From positions 1-4,032 of the IMG/VR virus record IMGVR_UViG_2778261065_000004: a stretch of DNA of 4,032 bases. The stretch is one strand, 5' to 3'. The DNA is from a virus. Taxonomy: Duplodnaviria > Heunggongvirae > Uroviricota > Caudoviricetes. The notes under the pieces were generated by a model, which worked only from the letters and a program-made list of their open reading frames with translations, did not search any database and was not told the DNA's origin. The position numbers were made by a program, and so were the translations under genes. This document shows positions 1-4,032 of this stretch, one piece after another (positions within the stretch are counted from its first letter, which is position 1; each line of letters opens with the position of its first letter).

Positions 1-383
1 ATCCGGTACACTGCAATGAGTCTTCCTGTTCCATCTCCCAAACCAAGGTTTTCGAGAGCCGTTTTCACCGTGCCATCCGATTTGATATCACCAAACGGAT
101 TCTTGCGGCTCAGGTATTCAACAGCAAACCCCGATCCCAGCAATTCAACAAAACCGGGCAGATCACCATTATCAAGCACATCCCGTTGCGTTTTATCACT
201 TACAAACTGGGCCAGAGCTGCAGCAATAAAGCTGGCCTGCCGAATAACCTTATTGACTTGCGCACTGGAGGCTTTCCCTGCTGTAAATCCGGATAAAAGC
301 GCAGGCAACGCTTCCCATTCCTTCTGCGACATAACATTGGCATTTTTACCCGTTGCGAATGCTTTAAAGTCATTTTTTGCCAT
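1..383 (-). CDS. Phage tail fiber protein, N-terminal part (partial; gene continues beyond position 1)
   Basis: My own translation of the minus strand from the ATG at 383..381 gives [127 protein letters not shown], open to the window edge. It is absent from the ORF track because no stop lies in the window. The start overlaps the upstream stop (TGATG). It sits directly after the gpI/gp48-like gene, where P2/Mu-type modules place the fiber gene, and resembles from memory the conserved N-terminal region of enterobacterial prophage side tail fibers. Confidence 0.8.
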
Positions 384-1063
384 CAGAGTAATACTCCCCA
401 TGCCCCTACATCAAAACCACTGATAAATTCGTTATCCATATCAAAACCAAAAAATTTTGAACCTTCCGATGGGGTTTCCACCGAAGGTGTTTCAATACCA
501 CCCGCCCACACCCCGGCGGCTTTTACTGTGAGATATCCCTGTTTAATTGCAGCAATTAACTCACGCGATACATCTGAAATATCAGTATCAGGAAAGACCC
601 AGACCGATATCGTCATGTCCTGGTTATCGACAATCTGCATTCGCAGCCCGGATCCTGCTGTCGCCGTGTCATGAATTGCTGGAAGCGAATCATTCCGTCC
701 GTCCCAGTTATTAATCGCAATCTTCGCTTTAAGGATGACACGATAAGTTTCATCGCTGAGATACATGTATCCGGAATCAGGATCATATGGCCCCTGCCAT
801 ACCCCCTGATCATATCCAAGCCCGTCGGTATCCCAGCTGAAATAGACACCTGAGATAGGCTGGCTGACAACACGGCTACGTCCGATCCACAATCCCAGAA
901 TGTCAAGTTGCACACCAACCGCAGAGTCAATATCAAATGCAGTAATCAGCCCTCTGGTGGCCGCCGCAACATCAATAAGCGGCCGGGTCATCAGATCAAC
1001 ATGCGCAAGAAATTTAGGTTTGGTGGCGTGGTAGTTCGTGATTAGTTCGGTGTATTTGCTCAT
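383..1063 (-). CDS. Phage baseplate protein, Mu gp48 / P2 gpI-type (YmfQ-like)
   Basis: 226-aa ORF ([29 protein letters not shown]...) lying between the J-like gene and the tail fiber gene. Its start overlaps the J-like stop by 4 nt (ATGA) and its stop overlaps the fiber start. The call rests on size, synteny and recalled similarity to YmfQ-like prophage proteins. Confidence 0.8.
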
Positions 1064-2259
1064 GACTCCACCGTTATAACGATATTTTCCGGGGTACAGG
1101 ACGCAGATTCGTTGTATCTGATATCAATGTTTGATGACGACAAAGCCCCCGGGGATTTCCCAATCGTCAGTTCCTGAATATCGTAATAGCGTGCATTCCC
1201 GCCACTCACCACGCCAAGATTCGCCGGTGAGTAAATGCGACTTAAAAGGACCGAATCACCAATCATCAGACTATTGATATAGTCGGAAATAGCCTGCTGG
1301 ATCTGCTGCCCTATCTGTGAGGTATAACCCGTAAAAACTTTTAATTTAATCCGGGCATAAACAGGCACATCACTGGAACGCGAGAATTTGATTACATGGG
1401 GATTGCCGTATTTATCCGGAACCGTAACGGATGTTGTACCGTGAGTGGCTGTCCCCTGGCCTTTATTCCCTCTGATAGCCTGAGCAATATCCGTTACATC
1501 ACCGCCATCCACAATTACAGCAACAGAGTGTGGCGGTAACCCGTTACCGTCCTCCGAACCAGTATCGTTTTCATAGAGTTTGTGGCGGGTTACACCGGTA
1601 ACATTAGAAACAGCACCATCCAGTGCTTCAAATGGGGTTATTGATGGCAACGCAACACTTTGCGACTGGCGGATACGTAACTCCGCGTCAGTTTCTGCCG
1701 GAGTGCCCACGGTAGCCGCAGCAGGATTAGTTACCGAAACCCAGCCACGGGTTGGCGTATTTATTTCAGTGATAGTTCCAGCCAGCGCCGCCACTGCACC
1801 ACTGACGGAACATGTTGCAGTCACCATCACTGTACCATCCACGCCGACCACCACTGAAGCAGGCAAACGCCATATCACATTATTACTGTCTTTCACGCTG
1901 CCATTAATGATGGTTGTTCCGGCAGTTCCTGTAAGAAGCAAATCAACCGTAGAATTCGTCGCGCCTTTACGTGAAATACCATTTATTTTCACGTTACTGG
2001 TCAGTGCAGCCCCATAGCCGGTTGCCGGTGAAAAACAGTTGTAGACAGTTATCGCCGTATTATTGGCATCATGAATCGCCAACGCCATCAGAGCCACCAT
2101 CTGGCCGTCTTTGCTGTCCGGTTCGAGGTAGGCATCACTGCCATAAATCTGCTGAAAATAGCTAATCAGGGTGCTGAGTATCGTCTGATAATCAGGCGCA
2201 CTGATCCCCTCCGCGGTTACCTTTGCAGATAAACCGAGAGAATCAAGGTTCAGAGCCAT
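1060..2259 (-). CDS. Baseplate J-like protein (Mu gp47 / P2 gpJ / T4 gp6 family)
   Basis: 399-aa ORF (MALNLDSLGLSAKVTAEGISAPDYQTILSTLISYFQQIYG...) of the size and position expected for a baseplate J protein. GGAGG lies 4 nt upstream of the ATG at 2259; the start overlaps the preceding stop (TAATG). Confidence 0.88.
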   Translation of the reverse strand: MALNLDSLGLSAKVTAEGISAPDYQTILSTLISYFQQIYGSDAYLEPDSKDGQMVALMALAIHDANNTAITVYNCFSPATGYGAALTSNVKINGISRKGATNSTVDLLLTGTAGTTIINGSVKDSNNVIWRLPASVVVGVDGTVMVTATCSVSGAVAALAGTITEINTPTRGWVSVTNPAAATVGTPAETDAELRIRQSQSVALPSITPFEALDGAVSNVTGVTRHKLYENDTGSEDGNGLPPHSVAVIVDGGDVTDIAQAIRGNKGQGTATHGTTSVTVPDKYGNPHVIKFSRSSDVPVYARIKLKVFTGYTSQIGQQIQQAISDYINSLMIGDSVLLSRIYSPANLGVVSGGNARYYDIQELTIGKSPGALSSSNIDIRYNESASCTPENIVITVES

Positions 2260-2612
2260 TACGCCTCCGATGTAACAGTCGTTATTCCATAAAGAGTGTC
2301 GATTTCAGCGGAAAACATGACACGTCGGGTCGTGGTATCCACCGTCGTATTGAAAGAGAGGATTGATTTAACGCCCCGCGTTTCGAGGATGCGCTTACGG
2401 ATCGCCAGGTTGTAGGTTTCCGGCTTCTGCTTACCGAGCACGGACTGGATCCACGGTGTTCCCTCTGTGGTATCAAGAAACCATTGCCCATACCACAATT
2501 CGAATCGCGTTTTCACAGCCTGCGCCACGGCCTCAGGCGAGTTAATCAGCCAGGTGTCATCACCGCTGCCAAAGGCGTAATCGCCATCGGCGTCTTCACG
2601 TCTGTATCGCAT
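2259..2612 (-). CDS. Small baseplate protein in the P2 gpW / Mu gp46 / T4 gp25 position
   Basis: 117-aa ORF (MRYRREDADGDYAFGSGDDTWLINSPEAVAQAVKTRFELWYGQWF...) located between the spike and J-like genes and coupled to both by 1-nt overlaps (TGATG upstream, TAATG downstream). Family is assigned mainly by synteny and size; the sequence match was not verified. Confidence 0.7.
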   Translation of the reverse strand: MRYRREDADGDYAFGSGDDTWLINSPEAVAQAVKTRFELWYGQWFLDTTEGTPWIQSVLGKQKPETYNLAIRKRILETRGVKSILSFNTTVDTTTRRVMFSAEIDTLYGITTVTSEA

Positions 2613-3364
2613 CAGTTTACCCCGTCGGTACTGCTTCCACCGCGCTGAACACCACCATGAGTGTGTGTATCATCGATTGGCTTGCCATTAGCCTTCACGC
2701 TCCCCAAAAACTCAACAGCACCAGTGATTTTTGAAGCCACACCAGAAACAACAGACCCCACCATGCCCCCCATCCAGGTTAACAGGCCATGAATGGTTAC
2801 TTTCTCAGAAAAATCAGCCAGAGGGGCAACCACATCAAGACCACCCGGAGCGACAATTTTAATTTTCCTGGTATCAGGATTAAGCTCAAAATAGGTGCTG
2901 CCGTCGTCACTACGCAACTGTGTGGCACTGGTATTAATACCGCTAATCTTCCTTGCCTGCGACTGGGGACCGACAATACAAAACGCATCCGATAAATCAT
3001 GCATTCTGTCATCGACAGGCTCCTGTATCCCGCCACTCTGCCACCAGAAATCAATACAACGATCGGCAAAAATCACCAAACATTCATCACCGGCTTTAAC
3101 CGGGAACGTTAGCGTACAGCCTCCGCCGCGCGGGAATACCACTGGTACATCCACCAGCAGGGGTAATATCGTCGACTGGTTGATTCCATTTGAGTCCGGC
3201 TCATAGCCTTTAATCGCAGGTTGAACAGCCACTGTTACCGTGTCCGGATCAAATGACTGGACGATGCCGGGCATAGAAACACGCAGCGCCGACATGACAG
3301 AGCCAGCAAGTCTTACATCGGCCTGTTCTTTGCTACCAAGTTGAGCGCTTAAAGAAACGGGCAT
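2612..3364 (-). CDS. Baseplate spike / assembly protein V (P2 gpV / Mu gp45-like)
   Basis: 250-aa ORF and first gene of the module. The C-terminus ...PIDDTHTHGGVQRGGSSTDGVN carries an HxH motif (His codons at 2663..2665 and 2657..2659) followed by a Gly/Ser/Thr-rich tip, like the metal-binding apex of P2 gpV and Mu gp45 spikes. GGAGA lies 7 nt upstream of the ATG at 3364. Confidence 0.85.
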   Translation of the reverse strand: MPVSLSAQLGSKEQADVRLAGSVMSALRVSMPGIVQSFDPDTVTVAVQPAIKGYEPDSNGINQSTILPLLVDVPVVFPRGGGCTLTFPVKAGDECLVIFADRCIDFWWQSGGIQEPVDDRMHDLSDAFCIVGPQSQARKISGINTSATQLRSDDGSTYFELNPDTRKIKIVAPGGLDVVAPLADFSEKVTIHGLLTWMGGMVGSVVSGVASKITGAVEFLGSVKANGKPIDDTHTHGGVQRGGSSTDGVN

Positions 3365-3383
3365 TCATATGTCTCCAGCAAGT

Positions 3384-3410
3384 AAAAAACCCGCCGGGTG
3401 GCGGGTTTTA
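3384..3410 (-). terminator. Rho-independent terminator hairpin (potentially bidirectional)
   Basis: Stem cccgcc (3390-3395), loop gggt (3396-3399), stem ggcggg (3400-3405): a perfect 6-bp GC-rich stem. On the minus-strand transcript it is followed by U6 (plus-strand A6 at 3384-3389); on the plus strand by T4 (3406-3409). It lies 63 bp downstream of the stop of the 113-aa gene. Confidence 0.7.
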
Positions 3411-3423
3411 TGTAGCTAGTTTT

Positions 3424-3458
3424 CTTTCCATGGCGATAGAAGCAATTACCGTGGAAAG
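3424..3458. repeat. Imperfect inverted repeat, 10-bp arms with 15-nt spacer
   Basis: ctttccatgg (3424-3433) pairs with ccgtggaaag (3449-3458); 9 of 10 positions are Watson-Crick and one is a T/G pair. It lies between the stop of the 113-aa gene and the terminator. Confidence 0.45.
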
Positions 3459-3472
3459 TTAATTTAGCGAAC

Positions 3473-3814
3473 TCATTGCTTATTTTCAGATAGCACCAAT
3501 CTACATTCTTCTTTTTTTAGAGTCGTAAGAGATTGGCCGCTATCGGAAAAAGAATAACCGCACTCGGAAGCGAGTTGACGCAGAGCTATTTCACCATAAC
3601 TATCACCATGTTCTTTCATTAACTCATCACCAAAATCCGCCTCACGACCATTAGATACAGCGTCCATAGCCGCATTAGAAACAGCCCTATTTGTGATCTC
3701 TCTCTTGATGATGTAGTTATCAGCCAGTGAGGTGTGCAGCCCAAAAAAATCATTCAGCGTTCCACCTACACAAATTGTTGGAGTCAACACTGCGAGAAGG
3801 AATATTTTCTTCAT
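3473..3814 (-). CDS. Hypothetical small secreted protein, unrecognised family (moron-like cargo gene)
   Basis: 113-aa ORF MKKIFLLAVLTPTICVGGTLNDFFGL... with a typical Sec signal peptide (two Lys, then a hydrophobic core, then VGG), no canonical lipobox, and two Cys in the mature part. AGGAGA (3823-3828) lies 8 nt upstream of the ATG. Hand counts on sample stretches give about 37-47% GC, against about 53% for a sampled baseplate stretch. It is followed by its own terminator. Confidence 0.7.
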   Translation of the reverse strand: MKKIFLLAVLTPTICVGGTLNDFFGLHTSLADNYIIKREITNRAVSNAAMDAVSNGREADFGDELMKEHGDSYGEIALRQLASECGYSFSDSGQSLTTLKKEECRLVLSENKQ

Positions 3815-3822
3815 TACAAATG

Positions 3823-3828
3823 TCTCCT
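3823..3828 (-). promoter_or_regulatory. Shine-Dalgarno sequence (AGGAGA) of the 113-aa gene
   Basis: Plus-strand tctcct is AGGAGA on the minus strand, 8 nt 5' of the ATG at 3814..3812. Confidence 0.6.
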
Positions 3829-3859
3829 ATAGCTGATTTCTTAAAAAAATTAATTACAG

Positions 3860-3881
3860 TACGTTGTGCCAGTATTGGTCG
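3860..3881. repeat. Copy 1 of a 22-bp imperfect direct repeat (tacgttgtgccagtattggtcg)
   Basis: Matches 3929-3950 (tacgtagtgcctgtattggttg) at 19 of 22 positions, 69 bp apart, in the AT-rich region upstream of the 113-aa gene. Confidence 0.5.
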
Positions 3882-3928
3882 TCTGGCATTCACGATGTAC
3901 TGCATTCCCATTAATCGTTCCTGTGGTA

Positions 3929-3950
3929 TACGTAGTGCCTGTATTGGTTG
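3929..3950. repeat. Copy 2 of the 22-bp imperfect direct repeat (tacgtagtgcctgtattggttg)
   Basis: See copy 1; the shared core is gtgccNgtattggt. Confidence 0.5.
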
Positions 3951-4032
3951 TATAAGATTCTGTTCTAACTTGGATTTGCCCCTATATTTCCAGACATCTG
4001 TTATCACTTAACCCATTACAAGCCCGCTGCCG

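Follow-up and report, generated by a model that had tools for sequence, protein, structure and literature searches.

We investigated orf113, a small gene in a 4,032-nt stretch of viral DNA (positions 1 to 4,032 of the IMG/VR record IMGVR_UViG_2778261065_000004; hereafter, the window). The gene lies upstream of a spike gene and further baseplate genes and, like every gene in the window, is encoded on the minus strand. Its product is very probably accessory, exported cargo. The gene is optional cargo in a hypervariable slot that separates hub and spike genes in the tail operon of a temperate myovirus prophage of the E217/ST64B type. More tentatively, we propose that it serves to protect the cell at the level of the envelope. 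Bases 1–3970 of the window are 100% identical to prophages of E. coli BCE049 and MFDS1022581. The BCE049 prophage has an E217/ST64B-type myovirus tail module comprising a DUF3383 sheath, a DUF3277 tube and tape-measure, Dit-like, plug and hub proteins. The spike gene forms the downstream border of the cargo slot.

A first-pass annotation of the window, made from the letters alone, had described a gene for a small secreted protein at this position. The open reading frame (ORF) proved to be real, as did its Shine-Dalgarno sequence (Table 1). The predicted protein begins with MKK, followed by a hydrophobic core, IFLLAVLTPTIC, and by VGG/T, with small residues at positions −3 and −1. According to a rule-based reading of this n-h-c anatomy, the N-terminus is a Sec-type signal peptide, as the annotation had stated. 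The layout, consisting of one to three Lys or Arg residues, a hydrophobic core and small residues at −3/−1, is kept in most of 18 aligned family members with identities down to 24%, the sequence of the peptide itself being variable. The annotation had also noted two Cys residues in the mature part. These residues, Cys85 and Cys104, are invariant in the 18-member alignment, as is Gly70. Lipoprotein status was ruled out because P-T-I-C does not constitute a lipobox ([LVI][ASTVI][GAS]C) and because Cys15 is not conserved, being missing from homologues P0004, P0005 and P0007.

To characterize the mature part, we used AlphaFold2 (AF2) with a six-sequence alignment. The model was confident and all-helical, with a predicted local distance difference test score (pLDDT) of >90 across most of the mature part and of 93–97 in the blocks over residues 21–80. 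The helices span residues 20–31, 34–54, 61–90 and 101–112. From its sequence, the product is predicted to be exported via Sec and cleaved after Gly18, and the 95-residue helical mature domain would fold in the periplasm. Given that the Cys pair is invariant and the predicted location periplasmic, Cys85 and Cys104 probably form a disulfide. A Foldseek search of the model against PDB and BFVD yielded no match with E <1, and the family profile matched no PDB sequence. Similarly, orf113 matched no entry of Pfam or NCBIfam, and none of the anti-phage defence families of PADLOC-DB 2.0 even at E values up to 10.

To evaluate how regularly orf113 accompanies the tail genes, we compared 38 complete E. 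coli genomes containing ≥80% of the window (~97% identity or more among those listed). The gene is present in seven of these genomes and absent from the other 31, all of which have this baseplate block. One of the seven carriers has an IS1 inside the query-matched region, and two have the region only in part. The induced, viable phage vB_EcoM-689R2 likewise lacks orf113. In other E. coli, the slot is occupied first by a gene of the STY1065/STY2022 family (phrog_3443; 110–114 aa) and then by further cargo: a gene for a DUF4282 membrane protein, a two-gene hypothetical set or a Phd/Doc toxin–antitoxin pair. Such cargo other than orf113 was seen in loci L003–L006, L017 and L018, and sequenced phage relatives show the same pattern. 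In the hotspot formed by the hub-to-spike junction (L003–L006, L008, L017 and L018), single genes of 170 aa or 266 aa also occur, and the toxin–antitoxin pair is of the Phd/Doc(Fic) type.

Base composition also sets orf113 apart from its surroundings. The G+C content of the gene is 41.5% (35% at third codon positions, GC3), as compared to 47.7–52.8% (GC3 44–60%) in the four baseplate genes. The contrast is therefore real, albeit smaller than the hand counts of the first-pass annotation had suggested. Genes of this family, homologues in four further lineages included, have a lower G+C content than their flanks in every lineage examined, for example 41.5 versus 49.3% in E. coli, 40.6 versus 53.4% in Pantoea, 42.5 versus 55.0% in Dickeya and, with the widest gap, 32.8 versus 54.1% in Serratia. 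Between the E. coli and Salmonella copies of orf113, the ratio of nonsynonymous to synonymous substitution (dN/dS) was 0.19–0.24 at a dS of ~0.22, indicating that the protein is maintained by selection where it is present. With respect to the Pantoea homologue, synonymous sites were saturated and dN was 0.28. Overall, the patchy occurrence among closely related prophages, the replacement by other genes in the same slot, the low G+C content and the export signal bear out the earlier description of orf113 as accessory cargo.

These data also make it extremely unlikely that orf113 encodes a structural or assembly component of the baseplate, with a hydrophobic N-terminus that acts as a membrane-insertion segment instead of a cleaved signal. 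Such a role would account for the conservation of the gene beside the hub and spike genes, and in an operon with them, in several genera. However, a structural part would not be expected to be missing from 31 of 38 genomes and from vB_EcoM-689R2, to recur in lambda-like tails whose tips are unrelated or to have a G+C content foreign to its operon. Moreover, orf113 has the conserved Cys pair and the canonical n-h-c signal anatomy that typify periplasmic proteins, and an export signal ill fits a core virion part that is assembled in the cytoplasm. Consistent with this, no match to a structural or assembly protein was found, and the gene is neither universal at this position nor uniform in composition with its neighbours.

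The STY1065/STY2022 family resembles orf113 in its slot, its near-equal size and its possession of a signal peptide and two Cys residues. Nevertheless, hhalign assigned a probability of only 0.4% to homology of the two, and orf113 did not match phrog_3443. Because both families coexist in Pantoea, Dickeya and locus L019, orf113 is not a divergent STY1065 copy. The STY1065 proteins are secreted, ~111 aa long and contain two conserved Cys residues; their reading frame overlaps the hub gene at its end or lies directly against it. In Dickeya, the STY1065-like region is the C-terminal domain of a 289-aa protein. A protein with a signal peptide is in this case conserved inside a tail operon, and we found nothing relevant in the literature on STY1065.

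The first-pass annotation had assigned the protein to no recognised family. In fact, orf113 matches phrog_13007 over its full length (residues 1–113 against profile positions 1–116 of 116; E = 1.9e-38), as do a member from Serratia (E = 2.7e-43) and one from Dickeya (E = 2.4e-17) with the E values given. PHROG 13007 is a small, rare and already catalogued family that is uncharacterised: the catalogue entry is without annotation, and the export, the invariant Cys pair and the linkage to the tail tip all come from the present analysis. Among 5.8 billion proteins searched by word index, just eight clusters were close to orf113; they come from E. coli, Salmonella, Shigella boydii and Pantoea stewartii. 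When 1.84 billion representative proteins, clustered at 50% identity, were searched with a profile, 21 matches were obtained, of which ~19 are credible. The credible members are secreted proteins of 108–124 aa together with a few proteins of 207–269 aa that contain the domain. The matches of 803 aa, a repeat protein, and 1099 aa are probably spurious. Among 185,579 species-representative genomes, the close subfamily was found in one, that of Pantoea stewartii; it also occurs in three uncultivated viral contigs. Some copies are in decay: one form is extended at its N-terminus to 145 aa, another, of 97 aa, has two stretches of divergent sequence, and S. boydii has a fragment of 64 aa.

In the longer members (P0014, P0020, P0023, P0024 and P0028), the orf113-like domain is extended at the N- or C-terminus by regions without a match in Pfam. 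A C-terminal extension is common to P0020 and P0023. P0028 is encoded inside a HigB/RelB-rich island of a tail module; a suspected likeness of its N-terminal part to DUF1311/LprI was not supported by Pfam.

To determine where members of the family reside, we examined loci of the E. coli/Salmonella type, loci from Pantoea and Dickeya, 15 loci of a Serratia type, and loci L019, L023, L024 and L025. In these contexts, the genes nearly always adjoin tail-tip genes. The order in the E. coli/Salmonella type is hub, a Thr-rich ORF described below, orf113 and spike, with Phd/Doc preceding the spike in Salmonella. In Pantoea, Dickeya and L019 (26–65% identity; 26–35% for the distant relatives in Pantoea and Dickeya), the order is hub, STY1065-like gene, orf113 homologue and spike, and in Pantoea and L019 the start codon of the homologue overlaps the stop codon of the preceding gene. 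In all 15 Serratia-type loci (~26% identity), the homologue lies in a lambda-like siphovirus tail in the order gpL, gpK (JAB and NlpC/P60 domains), homologue, gpI and gpJ. A 210-aa member (L024) directly follows a spike gene, its start being located at the spike stop codon. A 225-aa member is found within a toxin–antitoxin-rich island in a tail module (L023), and one member occurs among a run of small ORFs of unclear nature (L025). The K-to-I junction at which the Serratia members sit is also a cargo slot for exported lipoproteins in lambdoid siphoviruses. Gp19 of phiKO2 has the lipobox LSGC; its annotation reads "putative moron gene product" and includes a putative terminator. Gp17 of mEp390 (MAGC) is annotated as a lipoprotein. 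In Cronobacter phage ENT39118 (L041), K and I overlap and the slot is empty.

We next consider what an exported protein at these junctions might do. Interference at the envelope is the likeliest role, because the slot neighbours are mostly exported or membrane proteins and because HK97 gp15 and T4 Spackle provide precedents. Envelope proteins among the other occupants of the hub-to-spike slot are the STY1065 family, the product of the Thr-rich ORF (signal peptide and four Cys residues) and the hydrophobic DUF4282 protein. Envelope-type occupants of the K-to-I slot are the lipoproteins phiKO2 gp19 and mEp390 gp17. As a soluble periplasmic protein, the orf113 product would shield the lysogen or infected cell at the envelope: in the periplasm, it would interfere with the penetration of the tail tip of incoming phages or with the entry of their DNA. 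The outcome would be superinfection exclusion or protection from lysis from without. In this capacity, the protein would be an unrelated functional analogue of T4 Spackle. An exclusion mechanism specifically, argued from analogy, is possible, if doubtful.

Phage morons, for which HK97 gene 15 is the prototype, are reportedly the subject of Juhala et al. 2000 and Cumby et al. 2012. The gp15 moron is encoded in the tail operon of HK97 and excludes superinfecting phages by a block of DNA entry that depends on the incoming tail (PMC3594210). Like such morons, orf113 is a small additional gene in a tail operon with a deviant G+C content, a patchy presence and a product that is predicted to be targeted to the envelope. 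In terms of the definition in PMC3594210, orf113 is extra DNA between genes that are otherwise adjacent or differently filled, and its G+C content is unlike that of its surroundings. By contrast to morons so defined, orf113 had no detectable separate promoter, and the hairpin downstream belongs to the phage backbone. The textbook moron layout described in the first-pass annotation stands with respect to an optional, compositionally deviant gene and is weakened with respect to the promoter and the terminator. Gp15 further differs from orf113 in being an inner-membrane protein of the YebO family, orf113 being predicted to be soluble and periplasmic; there is no sequence relationship between the two.

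The genes for Cor (phi80, N15, HK022 and mEp167) and for T5 Llp are located next to tail or receptor-binding genes. As envelope-exported exclusion proteins, Cor and Llp provide a precedent for the linkage of exclusion factors to the tail tip. Both proteins block receptors (see PMC9586334 for Llp) and are outer-membrane lipoproteins, whereas orf113 lacks a lipobox and has no homology to either. A further parallel is Spackle. This 75-aa protein of the periplasm is a helical bundle that contains a disulfide, and it blocks the lysozyme on the tail spike of incoming phages (PMC7677548). Spackle (gp61.3; PDB 6X6O) and orf113 are both small phage precursors with a cleaved periplasmic signal (predicted for orf113), a compact helical mature domain and two Cys residues. 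No similarity in sequence or fold was detected between orf113 and 6X6O, and the comparison thus concerns a possible mode of action, not family membership. The genomic settings also differ: Spackle is encoded by an early gene of a lytic phage that is not beside gene 5, whereas orf113 adjoins tail-tip genes. Finally, the tails considered here carry SLT or NlpC/P60 domains rather than a gp5-type lysozyme.

Several observations weigh against protection from incoming phages. A tblastn search of 50,697 phage records with the window protein and the Serratia member found no member, such that all of the evidence comes from prophages and uncultivated viral contigs. The mature proteins of the family range from acidic to basic (pI 4.4–8.9). 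In addition, the family accompanies two unrelated tail-tip machineries with different hydrolases, an SLT domain in the myovirus-type tape-measure protein and NlpC/P60 in the lambda-type gpK; a single target common to the phages is accordingly less likely. Cargo may also simply be tolerated at tail-tip junctions, in which case the linkage need not reflect function. We regard as improbable the broader hypothesis that PHROG 13007 represents a new class of soluble periplasmic superinfection-exclusion factors that neutralise the penetration step of E217-type and lambda-type tails, are linked to tail-tip genes through co-evolving specificity and constitute a temperate-phage counterpart of Spackle with an unrelated fold.

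If exclusion is nonetheless the role of orf113, a soluble periplasmic type would join the short list of envelope-level exclusion proteins. This would explain why the hub-to-spike and K-to-I junctions collect exported proteins, and would make both slots good sites in which to search for envelope-acting factors of phage–phage interference. Irrespective of the role, an uncharacterised protein has been placed in a rare, well-delimited family whose genomic position follows a clear pattern. Of greatest interest is the recurrent location of this rare exported family, along with other exported proteins, at tail-tip junctions in two tail architectures.

The transcription of orf113 bears on two further explanations of its function. 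The first-pass annotation had described an independent transcription unit. A consensus scan, which is weak evidence and could miss a non-canonical promoter, detected no sigma-70-like promoter upstream of orf113 in either the window or the intact locus. Moreover, the DNA upstream is coding, the start codons of homologues overlap preceding genes and the terminator is that of the backbone, such that the description was not supported. Transcription as part of the tail operon is favoured because no promoter was found and because the upstream ORF is coupled to the hub gene. From this layout, we infer that transcripts of orf113 are those of the tail operon or arise inside it, instead of starting at a promoter specific to the gene, and that the downstream hairpin at 3384–3409 ends or attenuates transcripts before the spike gene.

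The same layout is relevant to the possibility that orf113 is a host lysogenic-conversion or fitness factor that is unrelated to phage defence and that, like lambda Bor and Lom or other virulence cargo of prophages, alters the envelope, stress tolerance or the interaction with an animal or plant host. We consider this unlikely. A factor of this kind would have to be expressed from a repressed prophage, for which no promoter was detected; some homologues are translationally coupled to late tail genes; and the persistent placement at the tail tip would be left unexplained. In addition, no similarity of orf113 to known virulence factors was detected. On the other hand, the gene is optional, compositionally foreign and predicted to encode an exported protein, and the hosts are animal or plant pathogens (E. 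coli/Shigella, Salmonella, Pantoea stewartii, Dickeya and Serratia). Prophages of the same type also hold ipaHb (L002), PagK (L008) and Mig-14 (L038) at their ends.

A position within the late tail operon, where no separate promoter was found, is what would be expected of a late-expressed periplasmic helper of the phage's own lytic cycle, which, instead of protecting the lysogen, might act in lysis timing, restrain the phage's own tail hydrolase or prevent the loss of progeny on debris. The start/stop overlaps with upstream late genes in Pantoea and L019 are likewise consistent with such a helper, as are the cell-wall hydrolase domains of the tails, SLT in the tape-measure protein and NlpC/P60 in gpK. 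Nevertheless, most near-identical prophages dispense with the gene, as does vB_EcoM-689R2, which was induced and is viable, and the low G+C content points to recent horizontal acquisition rather than to an integrated lytic function. A helper role is thus improbable, and protection at the envelope remains the reading that we prefer.

With regard to the end of the slot, the annotation had assigned orf113 an intrinsic terminator of its own. The hairpin at 3384–3409 and its U-run are real: with a folding energy of −22.9 kcal/mol (z = −5.8), the hairpin precedes a run of six U. However, it is not the gene's own. A hairpin of the form AACCCGCC-N4-6-GGCGGG-T6 occurs ~20 nt before the spike start in all relatives examined, whatever the cargo, with copies at the equivalent position in L002–L008 and L015 in which the loops vary and one stem position becomes G-U. 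In relatives with other cargo, homology to the window reaches 3407 or 3447, the hairpin included. In Salmonella, the conserved hairpin is found downstream of the Doc gene, orf113 itself not being followed by a terminator; in Serratia members, another hairpin comes directly 3′ of the gene. The hairpin at 3384–3409 is therefore a phage-backbone element that closes the cargo slot. The consensus terminator scan of the window and the intact locus missed this hairpin, probably because the flanking A-run pairs with the U-run; folding confirmed it. An Rfam search over the hairpin yielded only sub-threshold matches to terminator-like leader models.

Expression of the spike is required, and the conserved hairpin before its gene, within what is expected to be a single late operon, therefore needs explaining. 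Late transcription may proceed by antitermination; alternatively, the hairpin may act as an attenuator between the hub and spike blocks or as an RNA-stabilising element. The hairpin would also keep any transcription that enters the slot in the lysogen out of the tail genes. Keeping cargo transcripts out of tail genes is classic moron logic. A second, imperfect hairpin directly follows the stop codon of orf113. The 3′ half of this hairpin is shared with E. coli A41, which has different cargo, placing one recombination breakpoint inside it.

On the other side of orf113, the first-pass annotation had reported ~220 bp of AT-rich non-coding DNA. This stretch is in fact composed of a 35-nt spacer (3815–3849), the remnant of a gene and the end of an IS2. 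The remnant belongs to an 80-aa Thr/Gly-rich ORF that is cut by the IS2 in the window and is intact in E. coli BCE049 and Salmonella. The full ORF of BCE049 reads MLKWILLLVYFVTLSSMA/AVTCTTSNTGTTYC...TNTGTTYCN, and its ATG overlaps the stop codon of the 346-aa baseplate-hub gene (ATGCTTAA). RefSeq leaves the ORF unannotated in BCE049 and FDAARGOS_944. The homologues are 80 aa long and 54–55% identical, with four invariant Cys residues and TNTGTTY/TGTTYC motifs; by sequence, the product has a signal peptide. The protein had no match in PHROG. In Yokenella regensburgei, the Thr-rich gene is the sole gene between hub and spike. Overall, the frame that is open in both E. coli and Salmonella, the conserved homologues and the lone occurrence in Yokenella indicate that the Thr-rich ORF is a real gene.

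The proximity of the two genes raises the possibility that orf113 is the immunity or partner protein of the Thr/Gly-rich peptide in a toxin/immunity or ligand/binder cassette. The genes are adjacent, 35 nt apart, in nine of nine loci of the E. coli and Salmonella types, three of them in uncultivated viral contigs, and both products are predicted to be exported and contain Cys. However, Yokenella has the Thr-rich gene alone, and Pantoea, Dickeya, L019 and Serratia have the orf113 homologue without it. We consider a partnership very unlikely and, as each gene also occurs without the other, rejected toxin/immunity pairing as a general explanation.

The IS2 end was recognized from thousands of matches annotated as IS2. 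The alignment with BCE049, which lacks the insertion, ends at 3970/3971. In other carriers, IS1, IS2 or IS600 is found within the locus or close by. In the window, the IS2 lies between the upstream part of the operon and the segment with orf113 and the baseplate genes, and should thereby deprive the spike and baseplate genes of late transcription; the prophage is therefore probably defective. Despite the insertion just upstream, orf113 is intact. According to an annotated copy, the IS2 transposase is co-directional with orf113, and read-through from the element could express the gene. The present results thus mainly correct the annotation of the locus, in which there are a small unannotated gene, a disruption by IS2 and a terminator that belongs to the backbone.

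Table 1. Features of the window and of related loci
Feature	Sequence	Positions	Strand	Basis or remarks
DUF2612 wedge protein	window	383–1063	minus	
Baseplate_J	window	1060–2259	minus	
Sheath-initiator or wedge protein, 117 aa	window	2259–2612	minus	
Spike gene	window	2612–3364	minus	PF18352 phage-protein N-terminal domain (E = 6.4e-44) and GpV Apex motif (E = 1.5e-4)
Terminator-like hairpin	window	3384–3409	minus	A-run, CCCGCC, ACCC loop, GGCGGG, U6; ~20 nt before spike start
Imperfect hairpin, 10-bp stem, no U-run	window	3424–3458	minus	Immediately 3′ of orf113 stop; fold
orf113	window	3473–3814	minus	113-aa precursor; ORF and PHROG 13007 match
Predicted type I signal peptide, MKKIFLLAVLTPTICVGG	window	3761–3814	minus	Codons 1–18; cleavage before TLND
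Shine-Dalgarno sequence, AGGAGA	window	3823–3828	minus	8 nt upstream of orf113 ATG; read from sequence
3′ remnant of 80-aa Thr/Gly-rich secreted-protein gene	window	3850–3970	minus	39 codons and stop; alignment to intact loci
IS2 right inverted-repeat end, TGGATTTGCCCC...	window	3971–4032		Matches annotated IS2
Intact Thr-rich ORF	L001	12485–12727	minus	
Intact Thr-rich ORF	L008	7723–7965	plus	
Intact Thr-rich ORF	L038	6001–6243	plus	
STY1065/STY2022 family (phrog_3443)	L003	2692–3027		
STY1065/STY2022 family (phrog_3443)	L005	3226–3561		
STY1065/STY2022 family (phrog_3443)	L006	5607–5948		
STY1065/STY2022 family (phrog_3443)	L007	7672–8004		
STY1065/STY2022 family (phrog_3443)	L015	7112–7981		
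Longer PHROG 13007 member	L023	7001–7678		
Longer PHROG 13007 member	L024	4522–5154		
phiKO2 gp19	L039	958–1293		
mEp390 gp17	L040	2198–2644		
Homologue of 117-aa protein (WP_001270636.1)	L006	3148–3501		
IpaHb	L002	3342–5168		FDAARGOS_944
PagK	L008	14538–14756		Salmonella
Mig-14	L038	10794–11714		Yokenella

Among the neighbouring genes, the tape-measure protein of the BCE049 prophage is annotated as a lytic transglycosylase. The RefSeq name of the 117-aa protein varies by genome, being either "thioredoxin domain-containing protein" or "contractile injection system sheath initiator"; the former appears to be an annotation error. At the tail-fibre end, prophages of the same type contain virulence-type cargo, namely the type III secretion system (T3SS) effector IpaHb in FDAARGOS_944, PagK in Salmonella and Mig-14 in Yokenella.

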